Source of the DNA: an uncultured Lachnospiraceae bacterium
GTDB taxonomy: Bacteria; Bacillota; Clostridia; Lachnospirales; Lachnospiraceae
DNA: 64,000 nucleotides
NCBI GenBank assembly: GCA_964619485.1
Contig: CAZUCI010000002.1
Location: 27,975 to 91,974, forward strand
Reading direction: 5' to 3'
Shown piece after piece: positions 60,274 to 60,385 of this stretch. The stretch's first letter is position 1; each line of letters starts with the position of its first letter. The notes under the pieces are model-generated. The model did not search any database. It saw only the letters and a program-made list of their open reading frames with translations, and was not told the origin of the DNA. Both the position numbers and the translations under genes were made by a program.

Positions 60274-60347
60274 TCGCGGTGACAGGATTTGAACCTGCGA
60301 CCTCTTCGTCCCTAACGAAGCGCTCTACCAAGCTGAGCCACACCACG
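60274..60347 (-). tRNA. tRNA-Pro with anticodon AGG (CCA not encoded)
   Basis: Minus strand CGTGGTG TG GCTC AGCTTGGTA GAGC G CTTCG TT-AGG-GA CGAAG AGGTC GCAGG TTCAAAT CCTGT CACCGCG A. C1:G72, A73 and G37 are as in tRNA-Pro. Anticodon is at 60311-60313. Confidence 0.95.
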
Positions 60348-60356
60348 ATGGTTATT

Positions 60357-60385
60357 AGTATATCAAAGGAAGAGAATTCTTTCAA
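60357..60385 (-). promoter_or_regulatory. SigA promoter of the tRNA gene
   Basis: Minus strand ttgaaa (60385-60380), 17 bp, TGn-tatact (60362-60357). Confidence 0.8.

Follow-up and report, generated by a model that had tools for sequence, protein, structure and literature searches.

A natural tRNA-Pro gene with an AGG anticodon, conserved in Lachnospiraceae and recurrent in other bacterial families

The window, that is, the whole 64-kb stretch of DNA analyzed here, carries a single tRNA gene, which ARAGORN identified as tRNA-Pro with the anticodon agg (60273-60348, minus strand). The Rfam tRNA model RF00005 covers 60274-60347 on the same strand over its full length, with 62.8 bits against a gathering score of 29 (E value, 1.4e−12). 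The gene and its flanking signals are as follows.

60274..60347, minus strand: tRNA-Pro(AGG) gene, 74 nt, from C1 (60347) to the discriminator base A73 (60274) (ARAGORN, Rfam RF00005)
60311..60313, minus strand: anticodon A34 (60313), G35 (60312) and G36 (60311), in the loop U32-U33-A-G-G-G37-A38 (read from the sequence)
60357..60385, minus strand: σ70-type promoter with −35 TTGAAA (60385-60380), a 17-nt spacer, TG (60365-60364) and −10 TATACT (60362-60357) (promoter scan, 10/12 with TG)
60268..60273, minus strand: run of six T residues straight after A73, CCA not being encoded (read from the sequence)

The tRNA reads CGUGGUG-UG-GCUC-AGCUUGGUA-GAGC-G-CUUCG-UUAGGGA-CGAAG-AGGUC-GCAGG-UUCAAAU-CCUGU-CACCGCG-A. 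Its cloverleaf is canonical, with stems of 7, 4, 5 and 5 bp in which 21 of 21 pairs are formed, including two G.U pairs (U3.G70 and G49.U65), and with the tertiary bases U8, A14, G18-G19 and G15:C48 and the T-loop UUCAAAU. A34 corresponds to window base 60313, a T on the plus strand. An earlier note on this DNA had described a full cloverleaf with all stems paired, two of them through G-U, together with the loop UU-AGG-GA and the bases G72/A73 and G37; each of these was found again in the sequence. The identity set of bacterial ProRS consists of C1:G72 and A73 at the acceptor end and G35 and G36 in the anticodon. All of these bases are present in the window tRNA, and G37 is also encoded; C1:G72 is also mentioned elsewhere (PMC10164551). 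The D-loop, AGCUUGGUA, has 9 nt and is closed by a 4-bp stem (G10-C25, C11-G24, U12-A23 and C13-G22). A 9-nt D-loop on a stable 4-bp D-stem is the element of proline tRNAs recognized by EF-P (PMC4890201). The D-arm of the window tRNA has this form, but pair 12:23 is U-A instead of G-C, a replacement that weakened the EF-P effect in E. coli (PMC4890201).

The −10 box ends 9 nt ahead of C1. The promoter had already been read in the earlier note as ttgaaa-17-TGn-tatact, and the promoter scan bore this out; its extended −10 (TGCTATACT or TGCTATAAT) precedes the tRNA in all sister lineages described below, with the remaining spacer diverged. A run of five to seven T residues follows A73 in every lineage and is the probable transcript end and 3′-processing site as predicted from sequence. 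Since a consensus terminator scan identified no separate terminator hairpin at the 3′ side of the tRNA, we only infer the terminator role of the T run. Folding of the tRNA together with its 3′ flank gave no structure besides the tRNA itself. Between the promoters of the tRNA and of padR lies a 14-bp tandem array (AAATTATTTGAATG, 6.9 copies; window 60400-60492). It is 14 bp longer in one assembly of the same species (L121), indicating that the copy number varies within the species, and it is absent from the sister lineages.

Look-ups of the neighboring PadR protein identified three further metagenome assemblies belonging to this species (99.6 to 99.98% identity over 4.9 to 6.3 kb), all of which have AGG and the same base at 60313. 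A metagenome scan, combined with look-ups of DUF4097 homologues, added at least seven diverged lineages in which the tRNA is 100% identical over 74 nt (L154, L192/L155, L176, L147, L224, L225/L226 and L230/L231). Conservation of AGG in relatives, put forward as a check in the earlier note, thus holds at both distances. Compared with the window, the neighboring proteins of the sisters share 92 to 93% identity in the ValS N terminus, 77 to 80% in PadR, 69 to 73% in the MacB-type permease, 45 to 55% in HAAS and 32 to 36% in DUF4097. Where the flank suffices, the gene order is shared and comprises the MacB permease, a protein of ∼500 amino acids (504 in the window), the tRNA on the opposite strand, PadR-HAAS-DUF4097 and ValS. 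The intergenic DNA on either side of the tRNA could not be aligned among the lineages, save for the extended −10 and the T run. None of the lineages examined had GGG at this chromosomal site, and a more distant relative (L236/L237; ValS 84%) carried the PadR operon and valS with the tRNA absent there. As to the organism, its GlnRS shares 87 to 90% identity with many proteins from Lachnospiraceae, a match that narrows the placement to the family. The cluster names of the neighbors at the sister loci read Lachnospiraceae bacterium, and among the contig names and cluster members are a woodrat-foregut sample and further MAGs of Lachnospiraceae.

The anticodon hinges on one base and the window derives from a metagenome-type assembly, but it is vanishingly improbable that sequencing or assembly wrongly put A for G (or for C), or that the base mutated lately in a tRNA gene undergoing decay, given the identical tRNA and AGG in three assemblies and at least seven lineages beside unalignable flanks, the conserved promoter and the compensatory changes among 19 AGG tRNA bodies described below. 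The assembly error (G to A) that the earlier note had allowed for is therefore refuted by the three further assemblies and the diverged lineages. A tRNA pseudogene was ruled out by the intact pairs, the conserved promoter and the invariance of AGG in at least seven lineages. On the same features, the earlier view of an intact gene that looks functional rather than decayed was upheld, and the tRNA-Pro(AGG) gene is almost certainly real and functional.

Solitary tRNA genes are common integration sites. The tRNA could therefore have been carried in by a phage or another mobile element and serve that element rather than host translation, and two observations fit such an origin: a 6-kb TetR/alpha-galactoside cassette that is missing from the relatives adjoins the 3′ end of the tRNA in the window, and at one AGG locus (L171) the tRNA belongs to a small array that also has three copies of tRNA-Pro(UGG). 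However, no integrase or phage genes flank the window tRNA, its position in the order MacB, 504-amino-acid protein, tRNA, PadR operon and ValS is constant in all sister lineages, and a search of 2.9 million viral contigs with a general bacterial-type tRNA-Pro(AGG) pattern gave 0 matches. A phage-borne tRNA was rejected on these three grounds, and we regard a mobile origin as very improbable. The cassette itself (TetR, DUF6937-DUF6938, MFS_2 and a GH36 alpha-galactosidase) occupies window 53891-59757, with the gene for the 504-amino-acid protein on one side and the tRNA 3′ end on the other. At that place the cassette is missing in L154, L192, L224, L225 and L230, where the tRNA lies within a few hundred bases of the gene for the 500-amino-acid protein. 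It has the look of accessory DNA inserted next to a tRNA gene, with no integrase present.

To place the anticodon arm, the window tRNA was compared with proK, proL and proM of E. coli K-12, fetched by coordinates; the comparison is thus limited to E. coli genes. A search of the E. coli genome with the window tRNA gave weak matches only. The window arm, CUUCG-UUAGGGA-CGAAG, equals that of proK(CGG) except at position 34, and the arm of proL(GGG) differs (CCGUC-AUGGGGU-GUCGG), having A32/U38 where the window has U32/A38. When any base was accepted at position 34, at least 120 matches to the arm were found in genome contigs, and among the matches listed all were CGG. In viral contigs, the arm with a non-C base (D) at position 34 gave 11 matches, all of them UGG. 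By sequence, therefore, the arm is a common CGG-type arm. In the comparison with E. coli proL, the window gene is not a GGG isoacceptor sequence apart from G34A; since the arm is of the proK type and not of the proL type, the natural gene is unlike a proL-type GGG tRNA with a G34A change.

The spread of AGG proline tRNAs was assessed by a scan of JGI metagenomes with the arm pattern CTTCGTT-R-GGGACGAAG-R-GGTC, which allows either purine at position 34. In all, 82 stretches were retrieved, and the 80 that could be parsed comprised 74 AGG and 6 GGG tRNAs. All six GGG matches had unrelated acceptor stems and lay inside arrays of 11 to 33 tRNAs, so that G34 on this arm is rare (6/80) and found solely in unrelated tRNA arrays. 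Among the AGG matches were 19 different tRNA bodies of bacterial type, each having C1:G72 and A73, and a small number of eukaryote-type tRNA-Pro(AGG) genes; the sample was chosen by its anticodon arm and says nothing on AGG tRNAs with other arms. C1:G72, A73, G35 and G36 are invariant in 19 of 19 bacterial bodies. Across these bodies, 100% of the cloverleaf cells hold standard pairs and 10 pairs have changed on both sides, although the anticodon arm, being fixed by the search pattern, is uninformative in this test. None of 500 shuffles matched these values, and structures slid along the sequence paired in 36 to 52% of cells.

One of these bodies, a second Lachnospiraceae tRNA placed in the family by cluster names, was found in 28 contigs, all of them AGG; by their flanks, these contigs separate into 21 clusters that share <90% identity. 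Other bodies were from Erysipelotrichaceae (a Lactimicrobium massiliense-like locus and Solobacterium), further Lachnospiraceae and one Bacteroidetes MAG. AGG is thus found in three or more families belonging to two phyla (Lachnospiraceae, Erysipelotrichaceae and Bacteroidota). With the scan open to G34, no AGG body was seen in a GGG version in any of the lineages, which number at least 28 from two clades and include many that are GC rich (GC3, 0.62 to 0.80). A34 is therefore favored over G34 in this tRNA context. Judged by this pattern, A34 is kept by selection, as a neutral A/G site would not remain A here.

Several arrangements seen at the scanned loci are recorded here. In L146, L157, L174, L189, L198 and L203, tRNA-Pro(AGG) is preceded at a distance of 7 to 25 nt by a tRNA-Arg(CCU) gene in the same orientation; two of the six (L157 and L203) were placed in Erysipelotrichaceae, GlgB of Lactimicrobium massiliense clustering with locus L203, and the pair recurs across several tRNA bodies. 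L171 holds a compact array (1814-2424) of Thr(GGU), two Thr(UGU), three Pro(UGG) and Pro(AGG), and is the only one of the scanned loci with AGG beside other proline tRNA genes. In L144, ARAGORN reported at 1955-2036 a tRNA of unassigned type whose anticodon has four bases (ccac); it lies within a 32-tRNA array that is one of those with the rare tRNA-Pro(GGG) on this arm. The eukaryote-type tRNA-Pro(AGG) genes (L159, L185, L195, L214, L212 and L156) have G1:C72 and, when not truncated, a length of 72 nt; their 17-nt anticodon stem-loop, CUUCG-UUAGGGA-CGAAG, is the same as in the bacterial AGG tRNAs.

Codon use was compared between the window, six sister lineages (L154, L192, L176, L224, L225 and L230) and the 28-contig family, with the following frequencies.

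Window (∼650 proline codons): CCU 0.21, CCC 0.18, CCA 0.28, CCG 0.34; CGA 0.12 of CGN; A-ending codons in five other four-codon boxes 0.34
Six sister lineages, pooled (396 codons): CCU 0.30, CCC 0.29, CCA 0.09, CCG 0.33; CGA 0.06 of CGN; A-ending codons in five other boxes 0.29
28-contig family: CCU 0.20, CCC 0.35, CCA 0.05, CCG 0.39; CGA 0.08 of CGN; A-ending codons in five other boxes 0.20

CCU and CCC together make up 39% of the proline codons in the window, and CCC reaches 0.25 to 0.45 of proline codons in the GC-rich AGG lineages. The arginine box of the sisters (0.33, 0.31, 0.06 and 0.31) nearly equals their proline values, and in most AGG carriers CCA stands at 0.05 to 0.09 against 0.06 to 0.08 for CGA. 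In these carriers the proline box is used as the arginine box is, with U- and C-ending codons about equal, A-ending codons rare and G-ending codons common. At locus L146, with a GC3 of 0.40, CCA is 0.07 yet ACA is 0.66. Thus, most carriers treat CCA like CGA, which is read through I:A pairing alone. The window species departs from this, with CCA at 0.37 and CCC at 0.08 in genes orthologous to the sister loci; its CCA use differs from that of the sisters (Fisher P = 2e−14) at equal GC3 and with an identical tRNA-Pro(AGG). This gap is therefore read as a difference in the proline tRNA sets, and suggests that the rest of the set differs, most simply in the presence or strength of tRNA-Pro(UGG). 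Overall, the suggestion in the earlier note that the tRNA replaces the GGG isoacceptor is qualified by the proK-type arm and the avoidance of CCA in most carriers, which hint at something beyond a simple GGG-to-AGG swap.

With regard to function, this is a genuine proline tRNA gene of the chromosome, maintained by selection in a Lachnospiraceae bacterium of gut or rumen type. Transcription is predicted to start from the extended −10 promoter; RNase P and 3′ nucleases would then trim the transcript, CCA would be added, and the tRNA would be charged by ProRS, methylated at G37 (m1G37) and used to decode CCU and CCC. Charging, m1G37 and CCU/CCC decoding are expected because of the identity elements and of experiments with the same anticodon (PMC3711424, PMC11066159). 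A34 would be deaminated to inosine by the TadA of the cell, and the tRNA would work as IGG, as do tRNA-Arg(ICG) and the tRNA-Leu(IAG) of Lactobacillales; pairing of IGG would be good for CCC and CCU and weak for CCA. We give this full account, including inosine at A34, a probability of about 0.5 on the sequence evidence. Between the two states of the base we lean slightly toward inosine over unmodified A, and the remainder falls to partial editing or other outcomes.

TadA of S. pyogenes has the loop consensus YUAMGRA, and E. coli TadA matches the loop of tRNA-Arg(ACG) (PMC11472039). The loop UUAGGGA fits six of the seven positions of the S. pyogenes consensus (Y32, U33, A34, G36, R37 and A38), and the misfit is G35, which lies outside the described TadA specificities (C35; A35 in S. 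pyogenes; partly U35). In favor of inosine, besides the six fitting positions, the U32/A38 context of the proK type is unlike the A32/U38 of E. coli proL, the isoacceptor type behind the unmodified Salmonella mutant discussed below. A34 is also retained in lineages with a GC3 of 0.62 to 0.80, in which CCC is the main CCY codon, and the proline box of most carriers mirrors the I34-read arginine box. Against inosine, besides the misfit at G35, E. coli and Salmonella TadA leave tRNA-Pro(AGG) and the orthogonal tRNA(AGG) unmodified (PMC3711424, PMC11066159). Furthermore, since AGG occurs in at least three families of two phyla, inosine needs repeated adaptation of TadA or a broadly permissive TadA. 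The codon argument for inosine is indirect, because the window species is without the CCA avoidance of its sisters, and it would also depend on the presumed absence or weakness of tRNA-Pro(UGG). A regular-expression search for a TadA-like deaminase found none in the window or in any fetched locus, where the only hits were two phage dCMP deaminases.

Somewhat less probable, though a serious contender, is the same functional tRNA with A34 left unmodified. Here CCU would be read by Watson-Crick pairing and CCC, and weakly CCA and CCG, by "two out of three" reading, in which a mismatch at the wobble position is tolerated thanks to the two strong G:C pairs that the proline codon forms; TadA could stay as it is. 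Unmodified A is the sole state shown experimentally for bacterial tRNA-Pro(AGG). The Salmonella G34A mutant reads CCC almost like the wild type and is not deaminated (PMC3711424), and the orthogonal tRNA(AGG) in E. coli gave 12.9% for CCU, 10.3% for CCC, 0.9% for CCA and 1.0% for CCG, with inosine undetected (PMC11066159). Natural unmodified A34 tRNAs are known in Firmicutes and Mollicutes (PMC8072771, PMC3711424), the independent occurrence of AGG in Lachnospiraceae, Erysipelotrichaceae and Bacteroidota would be simplest without coevolution of an enzyme, and the window uses CCU no less often than CCC, against a preference for C in the Thr, Ala and Ser boxes. However, near equivalence of A34 and G34 predicts drift to GGG bodies, especially in GC-rich genomes, and none was found among the 28 or more lineages; the major codon of the GC-rich lineages, CCC (0.25 to 0.45), would hang on an A:C mismatch. 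The laboratory precedents, moreover, say nothing of Lachnospiraceae TadA acting on a U32/A38 loop, because they were made with a GGG-derived (proL-type) tRNA or with E. coli TadA.

Returning to the reading with inosine, its broadest form is an arginine-like proline box in many gut Lachnospiraceae and Erysipelotrichaceae. A G35-tolerant TadA would yield an IGG tRNA that reads CCU and CCC and, poorly, CCA, a CGG tRNA would read CCG, and the UGG tRNA would be lost or marginal. The AGG gene would have arisen from a CGG/UGG-type tRNA rather than from a GGG tRNA, and the window species would have kept or regained a good CCA reader. Such decoding would account for the CGA-like avoidance of CCA in most carriers; we put it forward tentatively and consider it, taken as a whole, rather unlikely.

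Apart from tRNA-Arg(ACG), only a handful of A34 tRNAs have been described as exceptions in bacteria (PMC8007984, PMC4041420, PMC11066159), in agreement with the rarity of natural non-Arg A34 tRNAs asserted in the earlier note. No description of a natural bacterial tRNA-Pro(AGG) was met in the literature search, an earlier mention in A34 surveys being possible. The window tRNA is a real and under-described oddity, yet one that is recurrent and that any tRNA finder annotates.

The closest natural parallel is the tRNA-Leu(AAG→IAG) of Lactobacillales, known from S. pyogenes, oral streptococci and Oenococcus oeni (PMC11472039, PMC13249217, PMC8072771). Both are non-Arg A34 tRNAs of a four-codon box in Firmicutes, conserved within clades and linked to shifted synonymous codon use, and both have G36, a purine at position 37 and A38 in the loop. 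Unlike the leucine tRNA, which has A35, the present one is for proline, has G35 and belongs to Lachnospiraceae rather than Lactobacillales. Deamination of the leucine tRNA is proven in vivo and with recombinant TadA, whereas for tRNA-Pro(AGG) it is a proposal.

Closest by anticodon are two laboratory tRNAs, namely, the tRNA-Pro(AGG) of the Salmonella G34A mutant (Chen, Bjork and coworkers, 2002, as summarized in PMC3711424 and PMC11066159), and an orthogonal M. jannaschii tRNA(AGG) in E. coli (PMC11066159). These share the anticodon with the window tRNA and demonstrate that, with it, CCU and CCC are read to a similar extent on a bacterial ribosome. They were engineered or selected and their A34 was shown to be unmodified, whereas the window type is natural, present in many lineages and kept by selection. 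The Salmonella mutant derives from tRNA-Pro(GGG), whereas the window gene has the proK/CGG-type arm with U32/A38.

Natural A34 tRNAs with an unmodified base are the tRNA-Thr(AGU) and tRNA-Ser(AGA) of O. oeni (PMC8072771) and the tRNA-Thr(AGU) of Mycoplasma capricolum (PMC3711424). Like tRNA-Pro(AGG), they serve four-codon boxes and have G35, but they are without G36, which tRNA-Pro(AGG) has and which fits the UAMG editing core (PMC11472039). The M. capricolum case is from an AT-rich genome, whereas many AGG carriers are GC rich and CCC rich. In the bacterial arginine box, read by tRNA-Arg(ACG→ICG) and tRNA-Arg(CCG), the codon pattern is the same as in the proline box of most carriers; the window species differs in using CCA normally. 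The cytosolic tRNA-Pro(AGG→IGG) of eukaryotes, edited by ADAT2/3 (PMC8007984, PMC9643335), has the same anticodon on a eukaryotic body with a eukaryotic identity set (G1:C72, 72 nt). The ADAT2/3 heterodimer binds the tRNA as a whole and is lenient about its sequence, whereas the bacterial TadA homodimer has strict loop specificity (PMC11472039).

A proline A34 tRNA that selection maintains across dozens of lineages of gut bacteria, from two phyla, stands against the near absence of A-starting anticodons given in reviews. If A34 is edited, the range of bacterial TadA would have been widened a second time, to G35, and the tRNA would be the third natural I34 tRNA in bacteria. It would then offer a natural model of the first steps toward eukaryotic ADAT and I34-driven codon bias, and would hint at TadA variants with new sequence preferences, TadA being the parent of adenine base editors. 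If A34 is not edited, this would be the most widespread natural decoding by an unmodified wobble adenosine, C-ending codons included. The Lactimicrobium massiliense-like locus points to a likely cultured carrier, in which the question of the wobble base is directly testable. Either way, the finding bears on tRNA-based models of codon optimality for gut Firmicutes.
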